Shown: positions 39,991-53,875, counted from the stretch's first letter. The stretch: 64,000 nucleotides of DNA from an uncultured Pseudomonadales bacterium (GCA_964511175.1 CAZEEI010000004.1:27401-91400), one strand, 5' to 3'. Numbers and translations are program-made. The notes: a model not told the origin generated them from the letters alone.

Positions 39991-40075
39991 TGCCGAGAAG
40001 AGGAGTTGAACCTCCACGGGAGAAAATTCCCACACGCCCCTCAAGCGTGCGCGTCTACCATTCCGCCATCCCGGC
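39991..40075 (-). tRNA. tRNA-Leu (anticodon GAG), long variable arm
   Basis: The reverse complement reads GCCGGGA-TG-GCGGAATGGTAGACGC-G-CACGC-TTGAGGG-GCGTG-(long variable arm)-GGAGG-TTCAACT-CCTCT-TCTCGGC-A. Confidence 0.8.
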
Positions 40076-40124
40076 CCATCCTAGTTTATGCTAGGCTGTA
40101 AGTATATCATTACCAGAGATAATT

Positions 40125-41915
40125 ATGAAGCTGCGACTGTCGCTTTTTTGGCCATTTCTCCTTGTTTTTCTCCTCGCCGCGGTAGTACGAGTGGCGTGGC
40201 TAGGCCAGTATCCCAGCGGGCTGCATTTTGATGAAGCTTGGTTTGGTTACAATGCTTTTCTACTCAAAGAGCGCGGCACCAACATCTACAATGAAAGGTG
40301 GCCTATTGATGTTGACGTTTTTGGCGAGCACGTTTCCGCCGCTCAAGCTTACTGGACGATACCGTTTATTAGCGTTTTTGGCCTGAATGCTTTTGCCATT
40401 CGTTTAACGGTAGTTACTTTTTCATTATTAACCCTGCTGCTAGCCATCTGGTTCCTATACCGCTTAACCCAAAACCGCACCATTGCTTTGGTTTTTGCTA
40501 TTCTCTATGCTGTTTCACCGCTAAACATCGTGATGGCGCGCGCTTCTTCTACTGTAATTATCGACACCTTCTTCTTACTTTCCTTCCTAGTAGCGCTGAC
40601 CGAATGGCTACGGCGCACTTCGGCCCGACAACTGTCGAGCCCTCAGTCTTGGCTTGGTTTGGCTCTGATTTACGGTCTAAGCGTGATCGCCTATTTCACG
40701 TATTTCACCTCCAGGTTATTAATTCCCGCTTTCGGCATTATCACTTTAGGCTACTTTGCTATGCAAAAAACCAACCGACCAAAACTTTTACTGGGGGCAC
40801 TACCAATCGTTCTTTACTTATTGGTACCCTTCCTCCTATTGCTCTCAACACCGTTTGGCCGCGGCCGTTTTGACCAAACTACCATCATCAACAACCAAAA
40901 TGTTCAGTTCGATCTAACCAATAGTATCCTGCGTTTTGGTCAAGCTGGCGCGCCGCCACTACTAACCCGCGCTCTACATAATAAACTAAGTGACAATGCC
41001 CGCGCGTTTCTCCAGCAATATGTTACTTTTTGGTCGCCAAACCCAGCCTTGTTTTCCTTAAAACTGCCAGCTCGATACCGTATGCCGTCCTTAGGACCAA
41101 TTGCGCCGTTGGAATATTTTGGTTTAATTTTAGCTGCCGCCGCGGCTGTCTTGGTAGTGAAAAAGAGTGAAAAGTGGCGATGGGTAGCCGGGTGGCTAGT
41201 TCTACTAGTTGGTACCGCCATTATTCCTTCGGCTTTAACGGTGGATGACTTTCCCAACTGGCAACGCGCCGCAGCAATCACTCCATTTCTACAGATGGCA
41301 GCGGCAGTTGGTTTGGCAGTGTTGACTCAGTCTTGGTATAAAAACTGGGCTAAATGGCTACCTGTTTTGGTACTACTGTTTAGCTTGCCGGTGGTAATCA
41401 GCCTTACCGAAAACTACACCACTCACGCCCGTTTCTTTGAACCTTTTTACCGTGACGTGGCTGGCTGGCGGCTAGGGGAATGGATTAATGCTAACGCTCA
41501 TGACGAGCGGTTGCTCCTACCCAGTGTGGGGGTTTTTCTTTTTCCTTACTTCCAAGATCAAAGCCTTATTCCTGACCTAATCACTTCGACTAGTGAAAAA
41601 AACTTGATTCAAGCTGACACGTTTCAGATTGGACCCCGGCACTTCGTTCGGGAATTATGCGGTTCGCCTTTAGTACTTACCGAAAATTACGATTATCTGA
41701 TTCTGAAAGCCGAAAGTTATTGCCAACAATTTCCTTGGTGGGTGGAACCAGTGACCACAATTACCTGGGAAAATGGTACGGCAGCATTTTTCATTGGTCG
41801 GGCAGGGCCAGAAAAAGAAACTCTGCGGCAAACTTGGGAAAAAATAACTGGTGACACCGAGCGTAATGCGCTAATACAACAAATTTTTGGTGAAGAACCG
41901 CCGCGTTCTAACTAA
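40125..41915 (+). CDS. Polytopic membrane protein, GT-C-fold glycosyltransferase-like (PMT/ArnT family)
   Basis: 596 aa and more than 11 TM helices. The N-terminal loop motif (HFDEAWFGYNA...) is like family-39/83 GT-C enzymes. It parallels ORF 20444..21844. Confidence 0.45.
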   Translation: MKLRLSLFWPFLLVFLLAAVVRVAWLGQYPSGLHFDEAWFGYNAFLLKERGTNIYNERWPIDVDVFGEHVSAAQAYWTIPFISVFGLNAFAIRLTVVTFSLLTLLLAIWFLYRLTQNRTIALVFAILYAVSPLNIVMARASSTVIIDTFFLLSFLVALTEWLRRTSARQLSSPQSWLGLALIYGLSVIAYFTYFTSRLLIPAFGIITLGYFAMQKTNRPKLLLGALPIVLYLLVPFLLLLSTPFGRGRFDQTTIINNQNVQFDLTNSILRFGQAGAPPLLTRALHNKLSDNARAFLQQYVTFWSPNPALFSLKLPARYRMPSLGPIAPLEYFGLILAAAAAVLVVKKSEKWRWVAGWLVLLVGTAIIPSALTVDDFPNWQRAAAITPFLQMAAAVGLAVLTQSWYKNWAKWLPVLVLLFSLPVVISLTENYTTHARFFEPFYRDVAGWRLGEWINANAHDERLLLPSVGVFLFPYFQDQSLIPDLITSTSEKNLIQADTFQIGPRHFVRELCGSPLVLTENYDYLILKAESYCQQFPWWVEPVTTITWENGTAAFFIGRAGPEKETLRQTWEKITGDTERNALIQQIFGEEPPRSN

Positions 41916-41922
41916 ACAGAAA

Positions 41923-42660
41923 TCAGGAATTTTTCTTCCAGGGTACGGCTAACAATATCTTGGAAAAAAAATCCTCTTCCATGGGGATATATAACTTCTT
42001 TAACTCTTCCGGCGAAGGCGGCTCTTCTTGAAATTGAATACGAGGAGCTTCCGTTATATGAGTCAGTGGAACCTGCTCATTACTTTCACCCATCACTAAG
42101 CAGGCGGCGGACGCCAGCGCATCAACAACGTTGATGAGTACCCACGTTGACTCGCCAAAAATATCCGGTTGAGCAGGCTGATCAATAACGCCCAAGAAAC
42201 CACAATGAGCAATACCAATACCGGTCGCTCCCTGCCGGAGGGGAGTGGAACGGCTGTCGCAAATTATTACCCCGATTTCTCGGCGATGAAATTTATGACG
42301 CAAATGATCCCATATTTGATTTACTGTTTGCTGGGGATTTTTGGGCCAAAGGGTAAAATATCCTGCTGAATTGCCAGTATCCACTCCCGCCGATCCAACC
42401 AAGATATTGTTTTTGATGGTAAGTACCACCCCATACTTATTTTGTTCAGCTGGCAGGTAATAGTCTGCTTCTTGGTAAGCTAACTGCTGTTTGGTGGTAG
42501 TAGATTTAGAGACTACTTGGCCTTCGCATAGAGAAACAACCTTGGCAGTTACTACCAGAATGGACCGCTCTGGGAGATCCTTAACATAGCGGTCGATAAA
42601 CTCAATGACTGTACAGCTGCCGGCATTGACGCGATCGGTTTGGATAGGGCTAATCACCAT
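41923..42660 (-). CDS. CofE-like gamma-glutamyl ligase family protein (F420-0:gamma-glutamyl ligase fold)
   Basis: VVTAKVVSLCEGQVV...GVDTGN...ICDSRSTPLRQGATGIGIAHCG is a pattern characteristic of CofE/FbiB N-domain homologs. The start is set at the ATG at 42658-42660, downstream of tRNA-Leu. The longer ORF 41923..42792 would read through the tRNA. Confidence 0.45.
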   Translation of the reverse strand: MVISPIQTDRVNAGSCTVIEFIDRYVKDLPERSILVVTAKVVSLCEGQVVSKSTTTKQQLAYQEADYYLPAEQNKYGVVLTIKNNILVGSAGVDTGNSAGYFTLWPKNPQQTVNQIWDHLRHKFHRREIGVIICDSRSTPLRQGATGIGIAHCGFLGVIDQPAQPDIFGESTWVLINVVDALASAACLVMGESNEQVPLTHITEAPRIQFQEEPPSPEELKKLYIPMEEDFFSKILLAVPWKKNS

Positions 42661-42683
42661 AGCGAAAAAAACTTCCTTATTTG

Positions 42684-42767
42684 TGCCGAGAAGAGGACTT
42701 GAACCTCCACGGGGTTGCCCCCACACGCCCCTGAAACGTGCGCGTCTACCAATTCCGCCATCCCGGC
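42684..42767 (-). tRNA. tRNA-Leu (anticodon CAG), long variable arm
   Basis: The reverse complement reads GCCGGGA-TG-GCGGAATTGGTAGACGC-G-CACGT-TTCAGGG-GCGTG-(variable arm)-GGAGG-TTCAAGT-CCTCT-TCTCGGC-A. Confidence 0.8.
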
Positions 42768-42847
42768 TCATCAACAGGGGCAAGTATATCATTTTTGGAT
42801 CTTTCCGTCATGGACAAGAGACGGCTGAACCAGTATAAACAAAGAAC

Positions 42848-43375
42848 ATGGAACCAATCGCTACCGTTGCTTATCGGTTTTGTCCGGTGTGTGGTGCGGC
42901 TTATGCTGCCACTCAGCATAATGAAGTAAATAAGACTTGTACAGTTTGTGGTTTTGTTTTATACGAAAACCAAAATGCTACTGTGGGAGCCATTATTGTC
43001 TACCAAAATAAAATCCTGCTCATCCGGCGCGCAGTTGAGCCACACCAAGGTACCTGGGACATACCTGGCGGCTTTGTGGAACCCAACGAATCGTGCCGCC
43101 AAGCCATTGAGCGGGAAGTAAAAGAAGAAACCGCTCTAAGTCCAAAAATCGTGCAAGAGCTGGGTTCTTACGGCCCCACATGGTATGTTTACCAGGGCAA
43201 AGGCAGTTACAACACCGATTTTTACTACCTAATGGAATCGGCTACCGACCAGTTTACTGTGGGTGATGATGCCGCCACCGGACAGTGGTTCGCCTTGGAT
43301 CAACTACCTCAGGAAGATGAAATTGGTTTTCCCTCTGTGCGGCGCGTACTGCAAGATTTAACGGCAATTTTATGA
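42848..43375 (+). CDS. Nudix hydrolase with an N-terminal zinc ribbon (NudC-like architecture)
   Basis: CPVCGAAY...CTVCGF zinc ribbon followed by the Nudix box GGFVEPNESCRQAIEREVKEETAL. Confidence 0.65.
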   Translation: MEPIATVAYRFCPVCGAAYAATQHNEVNKTCTVCGFVLYENQNATVGAIIVYQNKILLIRRAVEPHQGTWDIPGGFVEPNESCRQAIEREVKEETALSPKIVQELGSYGPTWYVYQGKGSYNTDFYYLMESATDQFTVGDDAATGQWFALDQLPQEDEIGFPSVRRVLQDLTAIL

Positions 43376-44292
43376 TCAAACAATTATTTGACATTAACGT
43401 AGCAACTTACCGCTGGCGTGAATCGCTAGTGAAAGAGGAAGTTGAGGCCGCTAATTTGGTCGTCCTACCCGGAAAACAGGTTGGGGGAATTTATCATTCA
43501 GAGTCGATGATTTGGCGAGGGGATTTACTAGGCCAAACATCACCAGAATTGTTTATTCGTTCCAAAAGGGAAAGAAAAAATATTAATTTTGCCCGCAACT
43601 TTTTTCTTACTCAGGGATATTCTCTACAAACTCATTTCGTTACTACCAAACTGGAAGTCGAACAATTTTATGAGTTGTACCAAAAAACCACCTTACTGCG
43701 CAAAAGCTCCGACCAGCATAAAAAACGCGTTAGAGATTATTTTGATCCGGATATTTTGGCAAAAAAGCAGGCGGTAGGGGAACAAGTGATACTGATCGGT
43801 TTATATCAGGGTGATCAACTTGTTTCCGGACTGCTGTGTTTCACCGAAAAAGATCTGCTTAAAGTCGGATATGGCGCCAAGGAACTTTTTCCTGAGGTGC
43901 GAGGCGGCATTGGGGGATTACTGGAATTAGAACTATTACAATTTGGCATCACTAATAATTATCGTTCGATTAGTCACGGCCGGTCCACTAACCCGGCCGG
44001 TTTAATTGACCGTGCCGGTATTTTTGAATTCAAAACTCGTTATGGTTTTTCGCCTTATCCCAGTGGACCCTGGCAGACCACCTATTTGCGATCGGCCGAT
44101 TTTGTTCTTGGCGACGTTATCTTTCTAGGCCTTAATAATGGTCAACTGGGCCTTACCGTGCTTACCACCTCGACTGAAACCGAAATTATTGCCAACAAAT
44201 ACCAAAGTTTGGCCACCAACCTTGTTTCGGTAATTAATATTAATGATCATGTTAAAAATGCCAGACAGCATCTTGATCGTTTGTTACAATAA
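43372..44292 (+). CDS. FemABX-like / Acetyltransf_6 GNAT-fold protein (paralog 1)
   Basis: 306 aa. The C-terminal GIFEFKTRYGFSPYP resembles the FemABX 'G.Y.FK..FG' motif. It is clearly paralogous to the next ORF (shared LIGLYQGDQL, NPAG[LV]I, F[EQ]FK[TA]R.GF..YP). Confidence 0.4.
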   Translation: MIKQLFDINVATYRWRESLVKEEVEAANLVVLPGKQVGGIYHSESMIWRGDLLGQTSPELFIRSKRERKNINFARNFFLTQGYSLQTHFVTTKLEVEQFYELYQKTTLLRKSSDQHKKRVRDYFDPDILAKKQAVGEQVILIGLYQGDQLVSGLLCFTEKDLLKVGYGAKELFPEVRGGIGGLLELELLQFGITNNYRSISHGRSTNPAGLIDRAGIFEFKTRYGFSPYPSGPWQTTYLRSADFVLGDVIFLGLNNGQLGLTVLTTSTETEIIANKYQSLATNLVSVININDHVKNARQHLDRLLQ

Positions 44293-44301
44293 GGAAACCC
44301 T

Positions 44302-45180
44302 ATGATCACCAATCTGTTCGATGTCACTATTGCTCATTACCATAATTTAAACGAGGTTAATTTGGACGAGATAACCAAAGCGGACATTGTTCTCTGTCAG
44401 AAATATCAAGCTGACGGTATCTACCACCCTGAGTCAATCCGCTGGCTGGGCGAAGTGGGTAGTGTCGATCCGGGTGATTTTATTTTTTCTTCCTCTCTGC
44501 AGAAGGAGCTTCCTCAAATCGAAGCGTATTTCCCCGATCACGGCTATGAGATCAAGATTAAAGAAATCAACGAGGCAGAGTTTGAACAATTCGAAAAATT
44601 GTATGAGCAACTGGCGGAAAGCAGAGATCGGTTCGTGATGTACGCCGACCGCTTGCGGGTCAAACAGAATTTGGCCGTCGGTTTGCCGGTGTTTTTGATC
44701 GGTTTATACCAAGGCGATCAACTCAATTCCGGCTATATTGCGTTTAAACAAAAGGACCGCCTCATGGTGGCTTGGAGTGCCGTGGCTAGTTTCCCTGACA
44801 CTAGATACAGCCCAAGCGTAGCTCTCATTGCAGCTATGGTACGTTTTGCCCACCAGCAAGAATTAACCACCATTAGTTTTGGTTCCGGCTTTAATCCGGC
44901 TGGGGTAATTTCCAAGACGGGGCTTTACCAATTTAAAGCACGGTGTGGCTTCACGGCCTATCCGGAAGGAGCGTGGCGATCCTTTTTTCTGCTAAATCCT
45001 GCTATTTTGTCTGCCGATTTAATTTTTCTGGGCATCACTGGCGACCAGCTGGCTCAAAGATTCTTAACCAATACTAGCCAGGACGGATCAGCTTACCGTA
45101 CTAAAGGAATTGGTATGGTGGTGGCCGAATCGCTGTCTGAACACGTTACCAAAGCCCGTAAACTGTTTGGGCTTACCTAG
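44302..45180 (+). CDS. FemABX-like / Acetyltransf_6 GNAT-fold protein (paralog 2)
   Basis: 292 aa and a tandem duplicate of the previous ORF. GLYQFKARCGFTAYP. Confidence 0.4.
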   Translation: MITNLFDVTIAHYHNLNEVNLDEITKADIVLCQKYQADGIYHPESIRWLGEVGSVDPGDFIFSSSLQKELPQIEAYFPDHGYEIKIKEINEAEFEQFEKLYEQLAESRDRFVMYADRLRVKQNLAVGLPVFLIGLYQGDQLNSGYIAFKQKDRLMVAWSAVASFPDTRYSPSVALIAAMVRFAHQQELTTISFGSGFNPAGVISKTGLYQFKARCGFTAYPEGAWRSFFLLNPAILSADLIFLGITGDQLAQRFLTNTSQDGSAYRTKGIGMVVAESLSEHVTKARKLFGLT

Positions 45181-45218
45181 GGTTCAGGAAATAAACCGAA
45201 AAACACCACTCGTTAAAG

Positions 45219-45293
45219 TGGGTCAGGCGGGACTCGAACCCGCGACACCCTGCTTAAGAGGCAGGTGCTCTAACCGACTGAGCTACTGACCCA
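45219..45293 (-). tRNA. tRNA-Lys (anticodon CTT)
   Basis: The reverse complement reads GGGTCAG-TA-GCTC-AGTCGGTTA-GAGC-A-CCTGC-CTCTTAA-GCAGG-GTGTC-GCGGG-TTCGAGT-CCCGC-CTGACCC-A. Confidence 0.85.
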
Positions 45294-45316
45294 ACCACGG
45301 TATTATAACAAAAGGA

Positions 45317-46276
45317 TTGCCTCCCGCTGCTTTGCGGCACTATAATAGCGGTATGCGACATTGGCTACTACTATCTTTGGTCTTCATGATTGGTTGCTGG
45401 TTTTCGCCAGCGCCTGCTTTGGCTCAAACTTTACCCACTGATACCCTAATGGAGCTGGTCGCCAGCAACGCCGCTAAGGCAGCCACGCCGGCGGCTCAAG
45501 TAGTTGAAAAAATCGAACAAAAAGAAGCCCAAGACATTACCCAAACCACACCGCAGGTGAAAAGCCGTTTGGCACGTTTTTTGGACGAAAATCCCGCCGA
45601 TCCGCCGGCTTGGCATAATTTTATCCAGCACGCCCTTCGCCGAGCCGTCAACCAGGGCGTACCAGCCAACATTTTAGTCTTACTCCTGCTCTTTCCGGTT
45701 ATTGCCTCGTTTATTGCTATTTCCCGCCATTTTATCGGCCTGGAGGGCTTTGGCATTTATGTTCCCGCGGTACTGTCGGTGGCCCTGCTCTCTACCGGTA
45801 TTATTTCCGGCATCCTGCTTTTCCTCCTCATTATCGTCACTGCCAACCTTAGCCGGGAGGTAATTAAACGTTTCCGCCTACAGTATCTGCCACGCACCGC
45901 CTTGCTGCTTTGGGCTGTTTCCCTAATGGTGTTTGCGTTGCTACTATTTTCCCCCCTGCTTCTTAACCTAGGCATTGATTTGGTTGCCTTAAGTATTTTC
46001 CCGATTCTGGTTTTGATTTTGCTTTCGGAAAACTTTATTGACGCCCAGTTGTCTACTACCCAATCGCGCGCTCTGGAATTAACTTTAGAGACCATCGTGT
46101 TGGCGGTATTTTCTACTTTGTTCGTCCGCACCGAGTTTGTGCAGGAATTCGTGATTCTGCATCCAGAAATTACCATCATGAGCGTACTGGCCGCCGATCT
46201 CATGGTGGGACGCTACACCGGCTTGCGTGTCAGTGAATATTTGCGTTTTAAGAATATCCTTGACCCGGAGGAATAA
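45317..46276 (+). CDS. Signal peptide plus a 7-TM-like integral membrane protein; first gene of the membrane/ATP-grasp/QEGLA trio
   Basis: N-terminal signal-like segment, an Ala-rich periplasmic region, then about 6-7 TM helices (GIYVPAVLSVALLSTGIISGILLFLLIIV...). It is translationally coupled to the ATP-grasp gene. Confidence 0.5.
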   Translation: MPPAALRHYNSGMRHWLLLSLVFMIGCWFSPAPALAQTLPTDTLMELVASNAAKAATPAAQVVEKIEQKEAQDITQTTPQVKSRLARFLDENPADPPAWHNFIQHALRRAVNQGVPANILVLLLLFPVIASFIAISRHFIGLEGFGIYVPAVLSVALLSTGIISGILLFLLIIVTANLSREVIKRFRLQYLPRTALLLWAVSLMVFALLLFSPLLLNLGIDLVALSIFPILVLILLSENFIDAQLSTTQSRALELTLETIVLAVFSTLFVRTEFVQEFVILHPEITIMSVLAADLMVGRYTGLRVSEYLRFKNILDPEE

Positions 46277-46277
46277 T

Positions 46278-47555
46278 ATGACCCATCCCCGCGACCTCCT
46301 GGGAATGAATGCGCGCGTCCAACTTTACACTTCGCTTAATTCGGCTCAAGCTAAACGTTACGGTTTTTCTAAACTGCGAGCTAAAGCCTTTCTGCAAAAA
46401 CACAGCATCTTGGTACCCAAACTCTACGCCCAAATTGCTGGACAGGAGGAACTGCGCCAGTTGGATTGGAAGACCATACCTGGTTCCTTTGCCGTTAAGC
46501 CCGCCAGCGGTAGTGCCGGCAAAGGCATTGTGGTTATTAAACGGAAAAACCACCGCCAACACACTTGGATTGATGTTACCGGCCGCGAGTGGAGTGAACG
46601 AGATTTAGACTTACATATCAGTGATATTTTGGCTGGACAATACAGTACTTGGGGTTCTAAGCACATGGCTCTAATCGAAGAAAGAATACCCATTCATCCC
46701 GATCTGGAAACTTACGCACAACTAGGAACACCAGATGTGCGGGTGATTGTTTTCCGTAATATCCCGGTAATGGCGATGGCGCGTATCCCTACAGAGGCTT
46801 CTGGCGGACGAGCCAACTTAGACCAAGGCGCCATCGGCTTAGGCATAGATATGGGTACTGGCAAAACCATTTATGGCGTTTCCGGCAAGAAAAAAATCAT
46901 CAGTACCTTTCCTCACAACCAACTGTCGGTGCGGGGTATTCAAATACCATTCTGGGTAGACGTTTTAAGAACCGCTGTCCGTACCGCCAACGCTACTGGC
47001 TTGGCTTTCATGGGAACAGACATTTTCTTGCACCCGGAAAAGGGGCCGATGGTAGCCGAAGTTAACGCCTATCCTGGTTTATCAATTCAGTTGGCCAACC
47101 GGGCTGGCCTACGACGGCGTCTGGAACGCCTGGAAGGGGTAGAGGCCCGCAACGTCACTCACGCCATTAAAATTGCTCAGTCGCTATTCGCCGAAAGCTA
47201 TCCCGGCACCGTGGGTGATTTGGATCGGCCGATTATTGCCCCTAAAGAACAGGTTTTGGTCTATGATTTGGACGAACAACCACACGAGGTTCTGGCGCTA
47301 ATGAATACCGGCCGCAGCCGCAGCGTCATTGCTGATTCTTTGGCCAGTCAATTAGAACTCAATCGTCAGCCGGAAATTATTAACGAAGAAATCGAGGGAG
47401 AGGGGAAATCGCCGGTAGTACCAGTACACATTAAGCTCAAAGATCGAGTTTTAAGCACTTCCATGGTAGTTTCCAAAAGACTAAATAACAAACGCCATCA
47501 ATTGGAGTTGGGACGGCACGACTTAAGCGGTTTTTTGGTAGGAGACGAATTATGA
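46278..47555 (+). CDS. ATP-grasp ligase, RimK-related 'alpha-L-glutamate ligase-like' family
   Basis: KPASGSAGKGIVVIK (phosphate-binding loop) and DVRVIVFRNIPVMAMARIPTEASGGRANLDQGAIGLGIDMGTGKTI (RimK-type catalytic core). GGAGG RBS before the ATG at 46278. Its stop overlaps the next gene (ATGA). Confidence 0.7.
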   Translation: MTHPRDLLGMNARVQLYTSLNSAQAKRYGFSKLRAKAFLQKHSILVPKLYAQIAGQEELRQLDWKTIPGSFAVKPASGSAGKGIVVIKRKNHRQHTWIDVTGREWSERDLDLHISDILAGQYSTWGSKHMALIEERIPIHPDLETYAQLGTPDVRVIVFRNIPVMAMARIPTEASGGRANLDQGAIGLGIDMGTGKTIYGVSGKKKIISTFPHNQLSVRGIQIPFWVDVLRTAVRTANATGLAFMGTDIFLHPEKGPMVAEVNAYPGLSIQLANRAGLRRRLERLEGVEARNVTHAIKIAQSLFAESYPGTVGDLDRPIIAPKEQVLVYDLDEQPHEVLALMNTGRSRSVIADSLASQLELNRQPEIINEEIEGEGKSPVVPVHIKLKDRVLSTSMVVSKRLNNKRHQLELGRHDLSGFLVGDEL

Positions 47556-48577
47556 AGTCTAAAGCGAATTTAACTCTACTACAAAAAATTCTCCCGTCTA
47601 ACCTCGCTGCCGAAAAACGCAAATTCCTGTTTGATCCTAAATATAATCCTCAGTTTGAGTACCCAGGCGAAATTGATTTGGCAGAATGGAATCAATATGG
47701 ACCGGTAGCGGATCAATATTTGGTCGCGGCTAAACAAATTATTGATGCCGTTATCCATCGCTGGGGTCAGGAAGAAAAATACTTGGACGAAACGGGTGGT
47801 CGTTTTTTGTCACAGGAAGAAGTGCGGACAAGGGTATTGGCTTATCTCAAAGATAATGGTTTAGCTGATGAAGTTATTGTTCAGTTCTCCAGTAAACAAA
47901 TCGCGCGGACGATGATGGACCGCAACGTCTTTAGTGTCCAACTGCCGGTACGCTACCGCGAATTTGATCTACCCAGCGTATTGGATCACGAAGTAGGTAC
48001 ACACTACCTGCGGCGTATCAACGAACAACAGCAGCCCTGGCGCGGTAAACACCGGGCTTTTGGTTTTGGCAGCAATGCCGGACAGGATGATCCCAACCCC
48101 AACCATTATCTCGAAACCGAAGAAGGTTTAGCTGTATTAAATTACTATCTCACTGCACCAGACAAGCATCTCTGGATGTCCGCCTTGTATTACTACACCG
48201 TTTGGCTGGCTAGCCAACTCTCCTTTGCCGCTTTGTTTCACGAGCTACGTTCTTATGTCGAAGACCGGGAAAGACGCTGGACGCTTTGTTTAAAGACGAA
48301 ACGGGGTTTACGTGACACCTCGTTGCCAGGCGCTTTCACCAAAAATCAACTTTACTTCTCCGGTGTGATTAAAGTAGCGCACTGGTTCAACCAAAACGAC
48401 TTCGCTGTAGAAGATCTTTATCTGGGCAAGTTGGCTTTAAATGATATTCCGCGCGCCAAACAACTGTCGGCCATAACCAAATTGCGGCTACCTCAATTCG
48501 TGGCCGACCGGGCCGCTTACCGGCAAAGCATCCAAGCAGTGATTAGCGTTAATAAGTTAAACGGACTGGTCAGCTAA
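47552..48577 (+). CDS. DUF1704 / 'QEGLA-motif' protein (predicted metallopeptidase-like)
   Basis: Contains HEVGTHYLR (HExxH-like) and ETEEGLAVLNYYL (the family-naming [QE]EGLA motif). It is found beside RimK-like ATP-grasp genes. Confidence 0.55.
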   Translation: MKSKANLTLLQKILPSNLAAEKRKFLFDPKYNPQFEYPGEIDLAEWNQYGPVADQYLVAAKQIIDAVIHRWGQEEKYLDETGGRFLSQEEVRTRVLAYLKDNGLADEVIVQFSSKQIARTMMDRNVFSVQLPVRYREFDLPSVLDHEVGTHYLRRINEQQQPWRGKHRAFGFGSNAGQDDPNPNHYLETEEGLAVLNYYLTAPDKHLWMSALYYYTVWLASQLSFAALFHELRSYVEDRERRWTLCLKTKRGLRDTSLPGAFTKNQLYFSGVIKVAHWFNQNDFAVEDLYLGKLALNDIPRAKQLSAITKLRLPQFVADRAAYRQSIQAVISVNKLNGLVS

Positions 48578-48583
48578 TTATCT

Positions 48584-49741
48584 ATGCTAGACTGGCGCCC
48601 CCATTCTCCTTGGCTTTACTGGATAGCTGGCGGCTTGGGTATAAGCGGGGGTATTCTTCTGATGGTGATACTTTGGTCCTGGTTGACCCTGCGGCGTATT
48701 TCCGTTCAGCCGACGGCTCCAGAAGTGGTAGCGGGACAAATCACACCCACACCTACGCCTAAGCCGCCTTACGATACTTATCTTATCTTGGGTTACGGCG
48801 GCGGCGCTCACTCCGGCGGCCGCTTGACCGATACGCTGATTGTGGTCTTCATTGATCATCAACGTAGTCGCGTCACGCTTGTGTCTTTACCACGCGACCT
48901 ATGGGTACAGTTGCCCACTCAAGCCGAAGGAACCAGTGGCTGGAAACTTAACGCCGCCTACGCCATCGGTGCCGACGATCGGCGCTATCCCCATAAGCCG
49001 GCCGAGTTTACCGGACCAGCTGGCGGCGGCCAACTAGCCAAGTTGGCTGTATCGCAGGTGTTGGGTACACCGATGGAACATTTTATTGCCCTGGATTTTA
49101 CTGGTTTCACGCGCTCGATTGACGTTCTGGGTGGAGTGGATGTCCAGATTGAAGTGGCCTTCGCCGACCCTTGGTATCCCATTGAGGGTGAAGAAAGTAA
49201 CACTTGCGGCAAATCGCCAGAGGAAATTGCCGCTATTACCGCCACTGCCTCAGCGGAACAAGCCCAACAGCAATTTCCCTGCCGTTACGAAACTTTGCAG
49301 TTCGAGCGCGGCTTACAACATTTGGACGGCACTACTGCCCTAAAGTACGTTCGCTCGCGCCACTCGACGGTGGCCGGCAATGATTTTGGCCGTTCGCAAC
49401 GGCAGCGTAGTTTAATTTTGGCGGTAAAAAACCGGGTACTTTCGATTGACTTCCTGCCCAAGGCCATTCCTTTTGTCAACACCCTAGCCGGACATCTGGA
49501 AACCGACTTAACTTTGGAAGATATGCAAAAGCTGGTTGGTGCAGCCAGTCAGATTAGTAATTACGAAGTACGCAGTTTGGCTTTAACCGATAAAAACTTC
49601 CTAAAACAGGGACGTAGTAGTGACCGGCAATACGTTTTGTTGCCGCGCGCCGGCGATGGTGAGTTTGGCGAAGTTCACGCTTGGCTACAGGCGGAGTTGG
49701 CTACTCCTTCGGCACAAGTCGACAATAATCAAATCCCGTAG
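48584..49741 (+). CDS. LytR-CpsA-Psr (LCP) family cell-envelope phosphotransferase
   Basis: N-terminal TM helix. LCP core ILGYGGGAHSGGRLTDTLIVVFIDHQRSRVTLVSLPRDLWV...LKYVRSRH. Confidence 0.75.
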   Translation: MLDWRPHSPWLYWIAGGLGISGGILLMVILWSWLTLRRISVQPTAPEVVAGQITPTPTPKPPYDTYLILGYGGGAHSGGRLTDTLIVVFIDHQRSRVTLVSLPRDLWVQLPTQAEGTSGWKLNAAYAIGADDRRYPHKPAEFTGPAGGGQLAKLAVSQVLGTPMEHFIALDFTGFTRSIDVLGGVDVQIEVAFADPWYPIEGEESNTCGKSPEEIAAITATASAEQAQQQFPCRYETLQFERGLQHLDGTTALKYVRSRHSTVAGNDFGRSQRQRSLILAVKNRVLSIDFLPKAIPFVNTLAGHLETDLTLEDMQKLVGAASQISNYEVRSLALTDKNFLKQGRSSDRQYVLLPRAGDGEFGEVHAWLQAELATPSAQVDNNQIP

Positions 49742-49755
49742 TAATATAACTTACT

Positions 49756-50103
49756 ATGTCATCATCATCCTCTAAACATATTGAGTCCGGTACTGCCGCT
49801 GAACCAGTCGAAAACCTAGTAGGTCAGTCGCCAGGGTGGTCGATGGCAGGGGTTCGACCAGGGGGTTTACCAACCGAATTGCTATCACCGAGACAATCAA
49901 CTATTGATCGTTTAGCTAGCCTGTGCCGTCAAATGGGCAAGGGTTTCGAAATTGTTTTCGAACCAGATACAAATGATTTTAAATTATATCTCGATGATCC
50001 TAATAATCTTGATGCCGAAAATGGCGAAAAAGAGTTTACTGCTCCTACTGCGGAAAAAGTGATTTTGGCGGCGATGGGCTTTTTGGCTAAAGAAGCGAAT
50101 TAA
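49756..50103 (+). CDS. Hypothetical protein
   Basis: 115-aa ORF. No motif recognised. Confidence 0.3.
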   Translation: MSSSSSKHIESGTAAEPVENLVGQSPGWSMAGVRPGGLPTELLSPRQSTIDRLASLCRQMGKGFEIVFEPDTNDFKLYLDDPNNLDAENGEKEFTAPTAEKVILAAMGFLAKEAN

Positions 50104-52064
50104 TCCCCCGGATGATATCCTGGTTCTGTTCGGCGCTGGATTGTTTCCCTAACCGTTTTTCGACCAAAAGCCGTTCTCGCTAGATTGAGCTCCGGTAAAC
50201 CCAGCGTCGTTAGGCCATGTACACTGTTACTGGACCACAACGTATCGAGTCCCTTTTCACCTCTTTGCCGATACAAACGAGTAAGTTGATCGACGTGGGA
50301 CAGTATACGCCGGGATACCAATTGATAAGCTTCGCGCATTGAGGCAGCAGCTTGGACTTCGGTTAACCAGTCATGAAATTCACTCTCGTCAAAAGCGTGC
50401 GGCGAATTAATTAGTTCTTCAAAAAGGAGCACGGTGGCAAACCAATCCTGACGGTAGGCACCCTGTTGTTCTTCATAGGAAAGGTTACGTAAAATGGCAA
50501 AAATATTCTGATCCAACCAGGACAGGGCTTTGAGCCAATTGGGTTCAATACCAACTTCGTGACGATTCATCATAGCCAACAAAGTGGTGTTGACGTAATG
50601 AAGCGTCCGAGACAAATCCTGTCGCATTACAGATTCTTCTTCATCCATAGTTAAGGCTCGTATATGTTGATTAAGCACGTTGTCTGATGTCACTGGTGGC
50701 TTATCACCAACCGCTTTGGTATTTTCCACCAACCGTCGTAAAACATCAGCCACCTTTACTAATCGCTTCACACCTTGTACTGTTTCGGTTATTAATGACT
50801 CATAAAAGTCTCTGTTTAGAAAATTTGTTTCAAGATTGTTAAGTTGATCGTGATAAGAACCGTCTTTTTCATACCGCCTAGCCTGATTGAAAACTAGCTC
50901 AAGGCGTTCAGTATTCCCAGTTTCGTAAAAATGTAGTGCGGCCAGTAATAAATTATGAACATATGGCCTCTGATCATGTACCAACTCCCGTAACGAACCG
51001 CTTATTACTGGAGCGTCTAATCTATTTTGATCTAACCGAGCGGCGTCAGTAGTGGGAACAGCTTGTAAGTGTAGTAGTAGTTCGTTTAAACCGTTGGGGG
51101 TGATCGGTGTAATGTAGCTCTGGCAAACAAAGTCAGCAGCGCCCCAATCCTCGCTGTTCATGCCCCAAACATTACCCCCTTTGTTTAAAATGTTTACTTG
51201 TTCATCTTGAGCCAACATGGCCGGCAACAATTTATGATTCATTCCCCAAATATTAGCCCTTGTTAAGCCATGTCTCCAAGCATAGTGATTAACAATATCT
51301 AAAATTTGCTTTTGCTTATCGAGGTCGCTGGTCGCTGATTCGATTTGAGTGAAAATTTGCAATATCTTGTCGATCTGGGTTGGGTCATGCTGATCCAATG
51401 CGGCTCGCTCAGCCCACAATAAGCGGCTTGCCACAGGGTTATTGTGCCCCCCTGACAAGCTATAAAAACGAGTAAAGAGTGTGATAAAACTATCGAATAT
51501 TGCTCTCTTTTCCTCAGCTTCGCGTTTAGGTGGACGCGGCGTAATATGAACTCCAGATAAGTCCCTCATTAAATCCGCAAACTCTAACCATCGCGTTTTA
51601 ATATCTTTGGGATCTAGATTGCCAGTAACAAAGTTGTCTCGCCACTTGGCTAATGACTCTTGATATAACTGTGCCTCTGCTAGTGATTCAGTGGTATAAA
51701 TCAAATTTTCGCTGAGGTGAAAATTAATTGTTGTCCCAGTTACCGCTGCTTGTCTGCCCACATCAGCAACTAAACGGATAAATTCAGGTAACTCCGATTC
51801 AACAATTGCTGAATCAGTTAACTGAGCTAGCAGTTTTTCTTTTTCACTATTCCTGGTACGGAAAAGGTAGCGAACATAGGCTTGGTCATCGTCATTAAAA
51901 GTGTCTATCGGCTTATGTGTTTGTTGAGCTACTAACTCTTGAAAATAGCTAAGTGGTTGATGGGCTTGTGGGGCGTCAGGAATGCACTCGTCCAGGAGGG
52001 GCTTAATCAGACTGCGACGTTGTTCCTGGCGAGTTTGTTCTAACGATTCAGCTTCGCCTGGCAT
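50100..52064 (-). CDS. Large hypothetical protein (~655 aa), alpha-helical
   Basis: Long ORF. The start is set at the internal Met (MPGEAESLEQ...) because the upstream 70 codons of ORF 50100..52274 are simply the translation of tRNA-Arg. Confidence 0.4.
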   Translation of the reverse strand: MPGEAESLEQTRQEQRRSLIKPLLDECIPDAPQAHQPLSYFQELVAQQTHKPIDTFNDDDQAYVRYLFRTRNSEKEKLLAQLTDSAIVESELPEFIRLVADVGRQAAVTGTTINFHLSENLIYTTESLAEAQLYQESLAKWRDNFVTGNLDPKDIKTRWLEFADLMRDLSGVHITPRPPKREAEEKRAIFDSFITLFTRFYSLSGGHNNPVASRLLWAERAALDQHDPTQIDKILQIFTQIESATSDLDKQKQILDIVNHYAWRHGLTRANIWGMNHKLLPAMLAQDEQVNILNKGGNVWGMNSEDWGAADFVCQSYITPITPNGLNELLLHLQAVPTTDAARLDQNRLDAPVISGSLRELVHDQRPYVHNLLLAALHFYETGNTERLELVFNQARRYEKDGSYHDQLNNLETNFLNRDFYESLITETVQGVKRLVKVADVLRRLVENTKAVGDKPPVTSDNVLNQHIRALTMDEEESVMRQDLSRTLHYVNTTLLAMMNRHEVGIEPNWLKALSWLDQNIFAILRNLSYEEQQGAYRQDWFATVLLFEELINSPHAFDESEFHDWLTEVQAAASMREAYQLVSRRILSHVDQLTRLYRQRGEKGLDTLWSSNSVHGLTTLGLPELNLARTAFGRKTVRETIQRRTEPGYHPGD

Positions 52065-52122
52065 ATGGTCTGATCTTACCGTAGTTCCGCATTGAGTACG
52101 AGAGGTGTCTACTTTTTTAAGG

Positions 52123-52196
52123 TGCACCAGGAGGGATTTGAACCCCCGACCCTCTGTTCCGAAGACAGATGCTCTATCCAACTGAGCTACTGGTGC
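52123..52196 (-). tRNA. tRNA-Arg (anticodon TCG)
   Basis: The reverse complement reads GCACCAG-TA-GCTC-AGTTGGATA-GAGC-A-TCTGT-CTTCGGA-ACAGA-GGGTC-GGGGG-TTCAAAT-CCCTC-CTGGTGC-A-CC. Confidence 0.85.
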
Positions 52197-53212
52197 GTTG
52201 GGGGTATTGTAGCACTGCGGTCGGTCAGTAAGGTCTGGTTTAAGGCCGTTAACATCGCCGTAAGCGCTTCCCACTGCTGAGTGGGCTGACCATCGGCGGC
52301 AAAGAAACTGAAACCAGCAAACGGCCCGGGACTGCCCGCAAAAACAAAGGGCGTAACCGCTTTGACGCTAGGACTATTCCAGATTTGCTTGGCCGCCGTT
52401 AAATAATATTGTTTGAGGCGCGTTTGCAGGCGAGGGGTGGAATCCCAACCAGTTTCGGTAACATAAACCTCCCACTGGCGGTCGCTGTAATTCTTGAGAA
52501 AAGCCAACTCATATTCAAAACCCCGCAGGGAGTTTTGGCCACGCCGCTCCGGCGAAGAAACAAAACCTGGATTGGGATAGCTGTGTGAGTTCCAAGCGCT
52601 GAGCTGATCCAAGATTTCCGGTTTTGAACCCAGCACTTCCCGCCAATAAGCCAGAGCTTCTTTAGTGGTGGGTGTATCGGTGGCGGCTAAGTCAAGGGCG
52701 GCCGGCAGGAGGATGTAGCGGCTGTTTTCAGTGACAAACCAGTTGAGTGCAAAATTGGTGACCCGAGCAAACTCGTGCGGATCCAGCCGGCCGCCCCATT
52801 CGGCAGCATGGTTGGGTTCGTTAAAAACGATCACGTGTTTTTCGTTCTGCGGCCAAGATAGTTGGCCCAAAGCGTTGGCTAAATCAACAATATCGCGGCG
52901 AGTGGGCACTTGCCAAGCTTGATCGGTAGAATTAAAACGGGTAGCCAACCTCACCAGCGGCACGACGTTATTTTGGCCAGCCAAAAGAAAAGCCTGCTGC
53001 CAGGACTCCGTTCGCTGGCAATCGTCCAGGGTAAACGGAATAGTCACGTACAGTGGTTGGTCGGCCTCGCGGTAGGGGGCAAATTCACGTACTACGTCGG
53101 CGATTTCTTCCGGGCGCAGAACATGAACGCCAGGAGCAAAGGCGCGCGCCCGACCAGGCAGACCTAAACAGAGCGTCAACCCTAAAACAAAACCGATAAA
53201 ATATTTATACAT
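52187..53212 (-). CDS. Secreted glycoside-hydrolase-like protein (TIM-barrel, GH5/GH113-like motifs)
   Basis: N-terminal signal peptide (MYKYFIGFVLGLTLCLGLPGRARA). HVIVFNEPNH (acid/base NEP) and YVTETGW (nucleophile E) are spaced as in clan GH-A. Confidence 0.45.
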   Translation of the reverse strand: MYKYFIGFVLGLTLCLGLPGRARAFAPGVHVLRPEEIADVVREFAPYREADQPLYVTIPFTLDDCQRTESWQQAFLLAGQNNVVPLVRLATRFNSTDQAWQVPTRRDIVDLANALGQLSWPQNEKHVIVFNEPNHAAEWGGRLDPHEFARVTNFALNWFVTENSRYILLPAALDLAATDTPTTKEALAYWREVLGSKPEILDQLSAWNSHSYPNPGFVSSPERRGQNSLRGFEYELAFLKNYSDRQWEVYVTETGWDSTPRLQTRLKQYYLTAAKQIWNSPSVKAVTPFVFAGSPGPFAGFSFFAADGQPTQQWEALTAMLTALNQTLLTDRSATIPPTHQ

Positions 53213-53238
53213 CGACGCTATTATACGATAGAAAGAGG

Positions 53239-53742
53239 CTAAACCACCTTCTTTTTGCCCTTGAGCCGAGCATTGAGGCTAAATTCACGCTCCTCGCCAC
53301 CAGCAGTCTCAATGACTTGTGAGCCAGTCATCTGGTAGTAGCGGATCAAATGATTACTAAGGGTTTGCTTAATTTCGTTAGCCTCTTCCTGTAATTCCTT
53401 CATTTTGATTTGCAGTTGAACCGCCTCTGGCGACTCCTTGATGCGCTGGCGCTTGGCTTTGACGTCGGACTTGAGGGTTTTCTCCTGTTCTTCCGCCTGC
53501 GCCAATTCTTCATTATTGGCAAAAAGATTAGCCAGCGATTCGCGCAGTTCGTGTACTTTTTGGTTCAGTTCGTCCAGTTGGTCGCCATAACGTTCCACAA
53601 TGTTTTGGATCGAAGTCAACATCTCCCCAAACTGTTCAGCCTGGGCAGTTTGTTGTGCCATTTCGTCAGCCGAAAGCACTACTACTTCATCGGTTGGCGG
53701 AGCCAAATCTGGAGGGGTAGTTACGGTTGGTTCATCTGGCAT
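53239..53742 (-). CDS. Coiled-coil protein
   Basis: Acidic and Glu/Lys/Gln-rich heptad sequence. Start set at MPDEPTV.... The ORF 53239..53793 could extend further 5'. Confidence 0.35.
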   Translation of the reverse strand: MPDEPTVTTPPDLAPPTDEVVVLSADEMAQQTAQAEQFGEMLTSIQNIVERYGDQLDELNQKVHELRESLANLFANNEELAQAEEQEKTLKSDVKAKRQRIKESPEAVQLQIKMKELQEEANEIKQTLSNHLIRYYQMTGSQVIETAGGEEREFSLNARLKGKKKVV

Positions 53743-53875
53743 GGTTTCCTTTCTGCGAGTAGTCACTGTACCAAGAAGTAGCCGAGTCTGCAAGAGACGC
53801 GAGATACATCTCTAAAACCCAAAAACCAGCAGTTGTACAACTATTGGTTTGACGTTTTTAAGGTTGAAAGTGGAG

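Follow-up and report, generated by a model that had tools for sequence, protein, structure and literature searches.

What do three closely spaced, co-oriented genes at positions 45317-48577 of the window, the 64 000-nucleotide stretch of DNA analysed here, do together, and on what do they act? This three-gene operon, carried by a candidate-phyla-radiation bacterium, had been described in the first-pass annotation as an uncharacterised trio of a 7TM membrane protein, a RimK-related ATP-grasp ligase, and a QEGLA/DUF1704 protein. HMM searches bear out the family assignments (PF14402, PF14397/TIGR02291, and PF08014/TIGR02421), but not the word "uncharacterised": the 7TM and ATP-grasp proteins are homologues of RloB and RloC, which have been studied genetically in Pseudomonas aeruginosa (Lormand et al. 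2025, PMC12239564), and DUF1704 has become the MATCAP/TMCP family, whose activity on tubulin tails as carboxypeptidase and deglutamylase has been characterised (PMC10499314). The three-part description also overlooked a domain of about 112 aa, a retropepsin fused to the ligase and apparently inactivated. Four modules make up the locus, a variant in Patescibacteria of the newly described RloB/RloC system: a 7TM_transglut protein, an ATPgrasp_ST/RimK-like ligase, a retropepsin-like domain, and a MATCAP-type metallocarboxypeptidase (Table 1). Taken as a whole, the trio suggests that acidic protein tails are modified reversibly, in a "write and erase" fashion.

Table 1. Features of the locus and its neighbours, numbered from the first nucleotide of the window.
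Feature	Position	Strand	Basis
tRNA-Lys(ctt)	45218..45292	-	ARAGORN
Promoter-like site, TTGCCT-18 nt-TATAAT	45317..45346	+	Best match in 42700-50400, 10/12; consensus match only
7TM membrane protein, 307 aa	45353..46276	+	PF14402 7TM_transglut, E 1.6e-21
Predicted signal peptide, MRHWLLLSLVFMIGCWFSPAPALA/Q (putative cleavage at /)	45353..45427	+	Read from sequence
GGAGG, Shine-Dalgarno sequence for ligase gene	46267..46271	+	Sequence; 6 nt 5' of ATG 46278
Glu-Glu codons ending the 7TM protein (...LDPEE-COOH), candidate acceptor tail	46268..46273	+	Translation
Ligase gene, 425 aa, RimK-like ATP-grasp fused to retropepsin-like domain	46278..47555	+	Homologues; independent gene call
ATP-grasp core, ATPgrasp_ST/rimK_rel_E_lig-like	46278..47204	+	PF14397, TIGR02291
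Retropepsin-like domain (RloA/RimB/DUF785 fold), last ~112 aa of ligase	about 47217..47552	+	AF2, Foldseek
N-T-G replacing retropepsin catalytic D-T-G	47304..47312	+	Translation
ATGA, MATCAP start overlapping ligase stop	47552..47555	+	Sequence
MATCAP-type metallocarboxypeptidase, 341 aa	47552..48577	+	PF08014, PDB profile
HEVGTH, HExxxH metal-binding and catalytic motif	47987..48004	+	Translation; motif defined in PMC10499314
TEEGLA, "EEG" motif with putative third metal ligand	48116..48133	+	Translation; motif described in PMC10499314
LCP-family (LytR_cpsA_psr) gene	48584..49741	+	PF03816, E 8.7e-32

Two of the start codons first assigned were wrong. TTG 45317, considered as the start of the 7TM gene, was rejected as part of the -35 hexamer of the promoter-like site, and translation from ATG 45353 instead yields a canonical signal peptide. 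The -10 box ends 6 nt from this ATG, a position from which the first gene may be leaderless; of 24 homologous loci, at least 13 have a TATAAT box 6-8 nt 5' of the 7TM ATG. For the ligase the start is almost certainly ATG 46278, separated by a single base from the 7TM stop TAA (46274-46276), since an independent gene call gives 425 aa and homologues align from the Met at this position. The 50-nt overlap of the two genes proposed earlier (46227-46276) is therefore a longest-ORF artefact, whereas the GGAGG noted with it is present, inside the Pro-Glu-Glu codons of the 7TM gene. The ATGA said to be shared by the ligase and QEGLA genes is also found as described, with AGGAG 5' of it (47540-47544).

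The tRNA-Lys reported upstream is likewise present, but it does not bound an accessory stretch. The window is collinear with a Woesebacteria locus (L003), both having the order tRNA Val-Leu-Leu, Nudix, tRNA-Lys, trio, LCP, tRNA Arg-Arg-Gln with the tRNA-Lys at the same position relative to the trio, and the G+C of the stretch is unremarkable. The tRNA-Lys is a conserved upstream neighbour, not an island boundary. Downstream, the LCP gene starts 6 nt past the MATCAP stop, with no terminator-like site in the interval, and is probably co-transcribed with the trio in the window. However, it is no conserved part of the unit, occurring beside it in L001 and L003 only, while three loci with independent gene calls (L132-L134) are flanked by other genes.

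The 7TM protein is built of a signal peptide, a low-complexity linker, a conserved helix, and a 7TM_transglut core, and it matches PF14402 at 77.4 bits (threshold 25). Its N-terminal ~100 aa are signal peptide and linker, and the transglutaminase-like domain is absent. Consistently, the RloB model NF052267, which has an inactive transglutaminase-like domain, matches the 7TM part alone (positions 313-506 of 508) and at 68.7 bits falls far below its cutoff of 900. A search found 402 homologues of ~300-330 aa. Homologues have in common M(R/K)x, a hydrophobic stretch, and A-x-A/Q, and the invariant polar residues of the protein are R125, H126, E226, N227, E246, E272, R292, E295, and R298. A comparison of the predicted structure (AF2, pLDDT 78.8) with known folds returned no informative match and none that was transporter-like. 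The C-terminus is predicted to be cytoplasmic from the N-terminal signal peptide, the seven TM helices, and positive-inside loops. It ends in Glu-Glu, as do 103 of 120 close 7TM homologues. That this ending is a by-product of the ligase ribosome-binding site was rejected, because the codon pairs differ among loci and EE is retained even where 20-429 nt separate it from the ligase ATG.

In the ligase, residues 30-303 align to positions 3-277 of 278 of PF14397 (ATPgrasp_ST; 181 bits against a cutoff of 31.4, E 3.7e-53), and full-length identity to homologues in Patescibacteria is 52-81%. TIGR02291 (rimK_rel_E_lig), the RloC-type equivalog, scores 240.9 bits against a curated cutoff of 314.2, and its 317-position model does not have the extra C-terminal domain of the ligase; by profile score, then, the ligase is a relative and no equivalog. 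A PDB profile search matches RimK (7qys, 7qyr, 5zct, 4iwx), with the motifs GvDi...EvN..PGl and RsNl..G aligned. The RimK-like catalytic core first read from the gene holds, since K74, the G78-S-A-G-K-G83 loop, E134-E135, G177-(R/K)-A-N180, D248, E261, and N263 are invariant in 31 sequences and the ATP/Mg2+ residues align to RimK motifs in 7qys. RimK models nevertheless score far below their cutoffs (TIGR00768, 40.8 vs 143.4; PRK10446, 16.8 vs 331), and the clade is RloC-like and not RimK. Pfam names this clade "sugar-transfer associated ATP-grasp".

The remainder of the ligase has a retropepsin fold. Its AF2 model (pLDDT 93) matches Lpg0085/DUF785 (2pma, 9e-6), RloA (9g58, 9g59; 3e-5), and then retroviral and Ddi1 proteases in Foldseek, with 2pma, 9g58, 9g59, and retroviral proteases at probability 1.00. 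A Pfam search of the domain gave no match above threshold, and sub-threshold matches to gag-asp_proteas occur in 13 of 25 family members. The window signature is L-M-N-T-G-R, lacking both the catalytic D-T/S-G-A and the poly-Glu contact Lys two residues N-terminal to the Asp; Asn occupies the catalytic position in 90% or more of the MATCAP-linked clade. The domain is thus probably a pseudo-protease and not a member enzyme, because it carries NTG, the D48N mutant of RloA is experimentally inactive (PMC12239564), and no Pfam match exceeds threshold.

The third protein, which lacks a signal peptide, belongs to PF08014, MATCAP, formerly DUF1704 (56.6 bits vs 27, E 2.9e-15). Its family profile matches human MATCAP/KIAA0895L (7z5g, 7z6s) over the whole catalytic domain (E 8e-89), with 4-321 of 322 positions covered in the comparison to 7z5g, and BLASTP against human MATCAP gives 34% identity (E 5e-67). 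The active site is intact, with HExxxH, EEG, and KRG all present. The HEVGTH noticed earlier is there, although it belongs to the HExxxH class and not to HExxH, and the EEGLA lies within TEEGLA; H146, E147, H151 and E190, E191, G192, A194 are invariant in 37 sequences. The protein shares its Pfam family with the bacterial QEGLA proteins, but at 59.2 bits it is far below the TIGR02421 equivalog cutoff (338.65), its motif is EEGLA, and its clade is much nearer eukaryotic MATCAP. Low salinity induces a QEGLA gene of Photobacterium together with its neighbour, an ATP-grasp-type gene annotated GshB. Compared with the PADLOC models of anti-phage defence systems, none of the three window proteins gave a significant match.

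How tightly these modules belong together was assessed in about 125 related loci. In a metagenome sample seeded with the ligase alone, all of 63 loci have the 7TM gene upstream of the ligase, and the ligase carries the fused retropepsin domain in all of 77, whereas MATCAP is present in just 11 of 61 loci found with the ligase as seed. The earlier statement that the neighbourhood recurs in diverse bacteria accordingly stands only in part, MATCAP being restricted to one subclade of the 7TM and ligase-retropepsin loci. Within close genome loci the order 7TM, ligase-retropepsin, MATCAP is kept in 22 of 24, and also in L132-L134, so that the expected synteny is borne out. Moreover, four loci (L026, L027, L028, L043) encode ATPgrasp_ST and MATCAP in a single ORF of ~790-806 aa, and the retropepsin signature in the fusion lineages departs from DTG(A) (DAT, DPH, DTS). 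Synteny and gene fusions strongly support functional coupling of the three genes.

The presence of MATCAP covaries with the state of the retropepsin and of the 7TM tail. DTG is kept in all 52 MATCAP-minus loci, but the canonical motif is lost in 35 of 36 MATCAP-plus loci and the Asp in 34 of them (NTG 26, NTS 4, NTA 2, HTG 2, DTK 1, DTS 1; Fisher p = 2e-22 for loci that are not phylogenetically independent). The MATCAP-plus loci are largely one clade, and these counts may stem from few evolutionary events. The RloA poly-Glu contact K46 is retained, as "AK[IV]DTGA", only in MATCAP-minus loci. EE tails are found in 26 of 36 MATCAP-plus against 2 of 47 MATCAP-minus loci, and over the last six 7TM residues the net charge averages -2.3 in the former and +2.0 in the latter; MATCAP-minus genomes appear AT-rich and Lys-rich, a compositional confound. 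The EE tail can be neither the obligatory nor the sole acceptor, because 10 of the 36 MATCAP-plus loci do without it and five MATCAP-minus loci have EEE tails (two of the five with enough downstream sequence to enter the 2/47 count).

The locus can be compared with known systems. RloABC, an operon of P. aeruginosa and gammaproteobacteria (Lormand et al. 2025, PMC12239564), likewise places a 7TM_transglut protein beside an ATPgrasp_ST/rimK_rel_E_lig-type ligase and a retropepsin of the RloA/RimB/DUF785 type, and shares the logic of a ligase product that needs trimming. In contrast to RloABC, the window system has no transglutaminase-like ectodomain on its 7TM protein, whose tail ends in -EE (absent from RloB of Aeromonas and Legionella), its retropepsin is unsecreted, fused to the ligase, and has Asn for the catalytic Asp, and a MATCAP-type carboxypeptidase is added. 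RimK-RimB also sets a cytoplasmic alpha-L-glutamate-ligase-like ATP-grasp with common Mg/ATP motifs opposite a retropepsin-like peptidase, on an acceptor ending in -EE like the candidate acceptor here. However, the window ATP-grasp is of a different clade, its 7TM partner is obligatory, its peptidase domain is fused and apparently inactivated, and the eraser would be a metallocarboxypeptidase. In eukaryotes, MATCAP/TMCP1-2 (KIAA0895L, KIAA0895) are tubulin detyrosinases/deglutamylases that act opposite TTL/TTLL ATP-grasp ligases, the same logic of ATP-grasp writer and MATCAP eraser on an acidic -EE tail that we propose for the trio, and they share HExxxH, EEG, YNPQFxY, and KRG..DTSxPG with the window protein. 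The latter lacks the N-terminal microtubule-binding extension, its partner ligase is RimK/RloC-like and not TTL-like, and its substrate cannot be tubulin.

On balance, we lean modestly towards a membrane-associated cycle of ligase and eraser acting on a C-terminal acidic tail, which may be that of the 7TM protein itself. The cytoplasmic RimK-like ligase would add amino acids, most likely alpha-linked glutamate, to such a tail, and the metallocarboxypeptidase would take the added residues off singly. The fused retropepsin would descend from an active poly-Glu endopeptidase like RimB or RloA; the best reading is that MATCAP has displaced it as eraser. Because MATCAP is proposed to have assumed this role, the Asp-less domain would most likely persist as a module that binds the acidic tail or serves oligomerisation. 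The best candidate acceptor would be the cytoplasmic 7TM C-terminus (...DPEE-COOH), which is like two other -EE ends: that of S6, the protein RimK modifies, and that of detyrosinated alpha-tubulin, which MATCAP produces. The modification state of the 7TM tail would tune what the 7TM protein does, by analogy with rloBC probably something connected with the cell envelope or osmotic stress. Known activities fit such steps: RimK extends the -EE end of S6 with Glu, RimB and RloA cleave poly-Glu (PMC12239564), and MATCAP/TMCP trim acidic tubulin tails, require a penultimate Glu, and are also deglutamylases (PMC10499314). In addition, the effect of losing the RloA proteases is suppressed when rloB or rloC is lost too (PMC12239564), therefore the product of the 7TM protein and ligase must be trimmed. 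The evidence thus favours the general idea first put forward, in which the ligase makes a peptide or glutamyl tag and the metallopeptidase trims it at the membrane.

One may argue instead that the ligase polymerises Glu into a free poly-alpha-glutamate, or another short acidic peptide, which the 7TM protein threads or exports; the retropepsin or MATCAP would then set the length of the chain or recycle it, and the EE tail and dead retropepsin would merely dock the ligase to the membrane protein. We consider this unlikely, though the best of the alternatives. RloA, a periplasmic enzyme, cuts stretches of 8 or more Glu, the rloB/rloC suppression is in keeping with an exported chain, and free poly-alpha-Glu was considered by the rlo authors (PMC12239564). 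An exported product also suits proteobacterial RloB, which has no EE tail, better than a modified 7TM tail does. Most family members have basic 7TM tails, poor acceptors but apt to hold a polyanion, the invariant polar and charged residues lie within the 7TM core helices in a transporter-like way, and cell-wall genes (FemAB-like, LCP) adjoin some loci. Yet both Patescibacteria peptidases lack a signal peptide, and fusion to the cytoplasmic ligase or overlap with it places the trimming in the cytoplasm. Moreover, a single-residue carboxypeptidase would be an unusual means of polymer clearance, the fold comparison gave nothing transporter-like, and export leaves unexplained why the 7TM tail is acidic specifically with MATCAP.

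Less probable still, and in our view improbable, is a cell-envelope amidoligase, in which the ATP-grasp would modify a sugar- or lipid-linked precursor (peptidoglycan stem, teichoic-type polymer) with an amino acid, while the 7TM protein would deal with a lipid-linked intermediate and MATCAP would trim stem peptides. The Pfam clade name, by which the curators tied these ATP-grasps to sugar transfer, speaks for this reading and against a tail as substrate. Two FemAB-like genes upstream in the window besides the adjacent LCP gene, FemAB-like genes flanking several other loci, and the cell-shape and beta-lactam phenotypes of rlo mutants (PMC12239564) are also in favour of an envelope amidoligase. 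These neighbours are, however, unconserved, being absent from L132-L134 and most other loci, and no glycosyltransferase is linked to the unit. The closest solved ligases are RimK enzymes, and RloA/RimB and MATCAP, to which the erasers are related, both act on acidic peptide tails.

Finally, RimK-type modification of S6 or another soluble protein, merely adjoining a membrane-protein gene, draws on the common RimK motifs and on RimK-RimB as the closest characterised ligase/retropepsin pair, but is very improbable given the 63/63 linkage to the 7TM gene, which speaks against chance adjacency, the low RimK model scores, and the RloC-like clade. A further ORF of the window that would suit it, at 3330-4898, likewise ends in ...AAEE.

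Three same-direction open reading frames span 45317-48577, and the locus is best described, as judged from sequence comparison, as a new variant of the RloBC/RimK-RimB-type ligase-eraser system. In this variant a MATCAP orthologue would have taken over as eraser, a protease domain would survive as a fossil, and the locus itself may encode the acceptor tail. The first-pass annotation had treated the trio as a real gene group, an observation that our analysis upholds. The three products belong to the Pfam families 7TM_transglut (E 1.6e-21), ATPgrasp_ST (E 3.7e-53) and MATCAP, formerly DUF1704 (E 2.9e-15). The first matches the RloB model over its 7TM portion only (positions 313-506 of 508; 68.7 bits, cutoff 900), the second scores 240.9 bits against rimK_rel_E_lig of NCBIfam (cutoff 314.2), and the third only 59 bits against the QEGLA model (cutoff 338.65).

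The rloABC operon of Pseudomonas aeruginosa was described by Lormand et al. 2025 (PMC12239564). It encodes the secreted retropepsin RloA, which cleaves runs of at least eight Glu, RloB, in which an inactive transglutaminase is joined to a 7TM domain, and the ATP-grasp protein RloC. When all three RloA paralogues are lost, hypo-osmotic lethality and cell-shape, biofilm and beta-lactam phenotypes follow; these are suppressed by deletion of rloB or rloC, and the substrate of the system was not found in that study (PMC12239564). MATCAP/TMCP1-2, in turn, are HExxxH/EEG metallocarboxypeptidases of patchy eukaryotic distribution that take Tyr and then Glu off alpha-tubulin tails, for which the penultimate Glu is needed, and that also strip polyglutamylation (PMC10499314). 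Our literature search found no publication tying MATCAP to prokaryotic operons. In Photobacterium damselae at low salinity, a QEGLA-motif protein is 27-fold upregulated, its neighbour annotated as GshB (ATP-grasp) 38-fold (genes A0J47_RS17020 and RS17025) and RimK 52-fold (PMC10308900), an induction that echoes the Rlo hypo-osmotic phenotype.

Gene boundaries in the window needed revision at two points. The TTG at 45317, previously taken as the 7TM start, coincides with the -35 hexamer of a promoter-like site, and the real start is a downstream ATG that opens a textbook signal peptide (MRHWLLLSLVFMIGCWFSPAPALA, cleaved before Q). Moreover, the proposed 50-nt overlap of the 7TM and ligase genes is absent: homologues (n=30) align from the Met of the ligase ATG that lies just past the 7TM stop, and an independent gene call on an identical contig gives a ligase of 425 aa. 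Both the GGAGG ribosome-binding site of the ligase and the ATGA start/stop overlap between ligase and MATCAP genes were correctly recognised. A gene for an LCP protein begins 6 nt past the MATCAP stop, and no convincing terminator was found in the MATCAP-LCP intergenic stretch. At the other end of the operon, a TATAAT box lies 6-8 nt ahead of the 7TM ATG, with no Shine-Dalgarno sequence, in at least 13 of 24 homologous loci (compared at 45341-45355 of the window and at the 7TM starts of L003-L025; L-numbers denote the loci collected in this analysis). This recurrence suggests that the operon's first gene may be translated from a conserved leaderless mRNA.

Coordinates of features in the 7TM, ligase-retropepsin and MATCAP genes (window positions)
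Feature	Position	Strand	Remark
Promoter-like site TTGCCT-18 nt-TATAAT	from 45317	+	10/12 match, best in region
7TM start ATG	45353	+	6 nt downstream of -10 box
Ligase Shine-Dalgarno GGAGG	46267-46271	+	upstream of ATG 46278
7TM stop TAA	46274-46276	+	
Ligase start ATG	46278	+	1 base past 7TM stop TAA
Retropepsin-like module of ligase	47217-47552	+	about 112 C-terminal residues
N-T-G in place of catalytic D-T-G	47304-47312	+	
AGGAG	47540-47544	+	ahead of ATGA overlap
ATGA start/stop overlap, ligase/MATCAP	47552-47555	+	

The ligase keeps all hallmark ATP-grasp residues (K74, the GSAGKG loop, E134-E135, (R/K)-A-N180, D248, E261 and N263); these are invariant across 31 sequences, and none of the catalytic residues is lost on alignment. 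Its closest solved relatives in a profile search are RimK enzymes. It had been read as an ATP-grasp protein alone, which overlooked a retropepsin-like C-terminal module that is conserved in all homologues. The relation of this module to retropepsins was seen by fold comparison only, since a sequence-profile search of the PDB gave no match and other sequence searches gave only sub-threshold retropepsin matches: its AlphaFold model (pLDDT 93) matches Lpg0085/DUF785, then RloA (9g58/9g59), and then retroviral and Ddi1 proteases. Here and in no fewer than 90% of close homologues the catalytic D-T-G has become N-T-G; for RloA, the mutant D48N serves as the inactive control (PMC12239564). The third protein, encoded at 47552-48577, shares 34% identity with human MATCAP (E 5e-67), conserves HExxxH, TEEGLA, YNPQFxY and KRG..DTSxPG, and is without a signal peptide. 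In addition, a profile of 37 Patescibacteria sequences matches human MATCAP across the entire catalytic domain (E 8e-89).

To place the trio among its relatives, two locus sets were annotated with HMMs built for this analysis: 47 loci from a genome scan seeded with MATCAP (9-sequence alignment) and 80 from a metagenome scan that used only the ligase as seed. A 7TM gene precedes the ligase in all 63 loci with sufficient sequence, and the retropepsin domain is fused to the ligase in 77 of 77. Of the ligase-seeded loci, only 11 of 61 have MATCAP behind the ligase. The gene is found in 22 of 24 close relatives of the window, and independent gene calls place it in L132-L134 too. The state of the retropepsin signature is complementary to this distribution. 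All 52 loci lacking MATCAP have DTG, typically as AK[IV]DTGA, which retains the RloA K46-type poly-Glu contact, whereas the 36 loci with MATCAP have NTG (26), NTS (4), NTA (2), HTG (2), DTK (1) or DTS (1), although the latter loci are those most query-like and the counts, which ignore kinship and base composition, may reflect few evolutionary events. Furthermore, ATPgrasp_ST and MATCAP occupy one open reading frame of about 800 aa at four distant loci (L026, L027, L028, labelled Gracilibacteria, and L043, labelled Saccharibacteria), with a retropepsin remnant between the fused domains that reads DPH, DAT, DAT and DTS in the four.

Three observations (strict linkage, gene fusions and the complementary distribution of DTG and MATCAP) make it well supported at the sequence level that the 7TM, ligase-retropepsin and MATCAP genes act together and that MATCAP has functionally taken the place of the retropepsin as the ligase's hydrolytic partner. 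The locus would then be a clean natural case of one eraser enzyme displacing another, in which the displaced protease persists as a pseudo-enzyme domain with the very Asp-to-Asn change by which it is inactivated in experiments, and MATCAP, a recently discovered tubulin-code enzyme, would be given a functional setting in prokaryotes and a plausible ancestry. The retention of the operon in many small Patescibacteria genomes suggests that it is important at the cell envelope. As for the chemistry, an acidic C-terminal tail would be extended and trimmed, as the relatives characterised for each of the three catalytic modules lead one to expect. The earlier proposal of a peptide or glutamyl tag made by the ligase and trimmed by the metallopeptidase is reasonable as a general idea.

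One candidate for that tail belongs to the 7TM protein. The AF2 model of this protein (pLDDT 78.8) has seven helices, its loop SREVIKRFRLQYLPR is strongly basic and its juxtamembrane tail basic; together with the cleaved signal peptide, these features would place the C-terminus in the cytoplasm, beside the ligase and MATCAP. Invariant R, H, E and N residues lie within the helices, fold comparison of the 7TM protein matched nothing informative, and it may be a transporter, a sensor or a scaffold. In the window its C-terminal tail is ...YLRFKNILDPEE, with an -EE end that is found in 103 of 120 close homologues. EE tails occur at 26 of 36 loci with MATCAP versus 2 of 47 without it, where the tails are basic. 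The ligase ribosome-binding site sits inside the window's Pro-Glu-Glu codons (ccGGAGGaa), and one may argue that the EE tail is a mere by-product of that site, but a codon and gap control rejects this as the sole cause, since the EE codons vary (GAA-GAG at 12 loci, GAA-GAA at 9, GAG-GAG at 8 and GAG-GAA at 5) and the tail is kept even with a gap of 20-429 nt to the ligase ATG. Gaps and frequencies of Shine-Dalgarno-like sequence are also similar in the clades with and without MATCAP.

Both this covariation and the parallel with S6 and tubulin point to the -EE tail of the 7TM protein itself as a tentative candidate for the acceptor, one that we consider possible rather than probable. As a universal acceptor it is contradicted by exceptions, namely ten loci with MATCAP that have no EE tail and five without MATCAP that have EEE tails; RloB of Aeromonas and Legionella is likewise without an EE tail. 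In the main rival reading, the product would be poly-alpha-Glu, either free or exported, for which the 7TM protein would serve as a conduit. One subclade without MATCAP (L078, L101, L103, L108 and L111) combines an ...EEE 7TM tail with an Asp-containing variant of the retropepsin signature, DTGAD[SI]SS, and so departs from the overall covariation. Elsewhere in the window, the only other open reading frame of at least 100 aa whose product has an acidic end (...AAEE) is 3330-4898 (+).

A side finding concerns where eukaryotic MATCAP came from. With each of the 37 Patescibacteria proteins tested, human MATCAP scores 124-213 bits, whereas none of the other bacterial and archaeal MATCAP-like proteins recovered gives it more than 90 bits. 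In an exhaustive representative search, long proteins were interleaved with short bacterial ones, and at least some of the long ones are eukaryotic (EukProt entries, including a dinoflagellate sequence). In outgroup-rooted neighbour-joining trees, which are distance trees without support values and with sparse taxon labels, the eukaryote-containing clade nests within the Patescibacteria radiation, beside the subclade of the window protein. These observations are no more than suggestive of a derivation of eukaryotic MATCAP/TMCP from within the Patescibacteria MATCAP clade, and with it of a possible transfer out of the candidate phyla radiation into eukaryotes. It is rather unlikely, but worth stating, that eukaryotes obtained the enzyme horizontally from Microgenomates-type Patescibacteria, out of an operon similar to the present one in which MATCAP already opposed an ATP-grasp ligase on an -EE protein tail. 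If so, the logic of the tyrosination/glutamylation cycle of the tubulin code would be older than eukaryotes, and in these bacteria the cycle would regulate a 7TM membrane protein via its own C-terminal tail.

By its nearest relatives, the source of the window is a Patescibacterium of Microgenomates/Woesebacteria type. An accessory stretch bounded by tRNA-Lys had been proposed, but G+C shows no compositional shift, and the Woesebacteria MAG L003 has identical tRNA and gene order (tRNA-Val, Leu, Leu, Nudix, tRNA-Lys, trio, LCP, tRNA-Arg, Arg, Gln). Nine of the 11 tRNA genes of the window fall in 17 kb, at 37686-54845. At 50100-52274 (-), the longest open reading frame that can be drawn, of 724 aa, overruns tRNA-Arg(tcg) (52121-52196), and the true gene is shorter; an independent call on L001 gives it 654 aa, with no Pfam match recorded there. 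Upstream of tRNA-Lys, 43372-44292 and 44302-45180 are tandem paralogous FemAB/GNAT-like genes with weak Acetyltransf_6 and pepcterm_femAB matches, and such genes also flank the operon in L002, L005, L010, L059, L062, L068 and L081. LCP and FemAB were nevertheless rejected as members of the unit, as these neighbours are not conserved and recur only sporadically. An anti-phage defence system was rejected for want of any PADLOC match.

MATCAP domains also occur in other settings among the scanned loci. Omnitrophota and Planctomycetia MAGs (L035, L037, L038, L041 and L045-L047) share a conserved six-gene cluster (e.g. L037:5327-13458) of a radical SAM enzyme (SPL-like), a nitroreductase, MATCAP, ATP-grasp_3, an unknown protein and CstA, so here too MATCAP adjoins an ATP-grasp ligase, of another clade than that of the operon. 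One 1125-aa open reading frame of a Bacteroidales MAG (L036:5367-8741) joins NB-ARC and TPR repeats to a MATCAP domain at the C-terminus, the build of a STAND NTPase whose effector appears to be a MATCAP-type peptidase. In a Balneolaceae MAG (L039:7926-11946), the two genes immediately 3' of a MATCAP-like gene encode an OLD-like AAA/TOPRIM protein and a UvrD-type helicase and together resemble Gabija.
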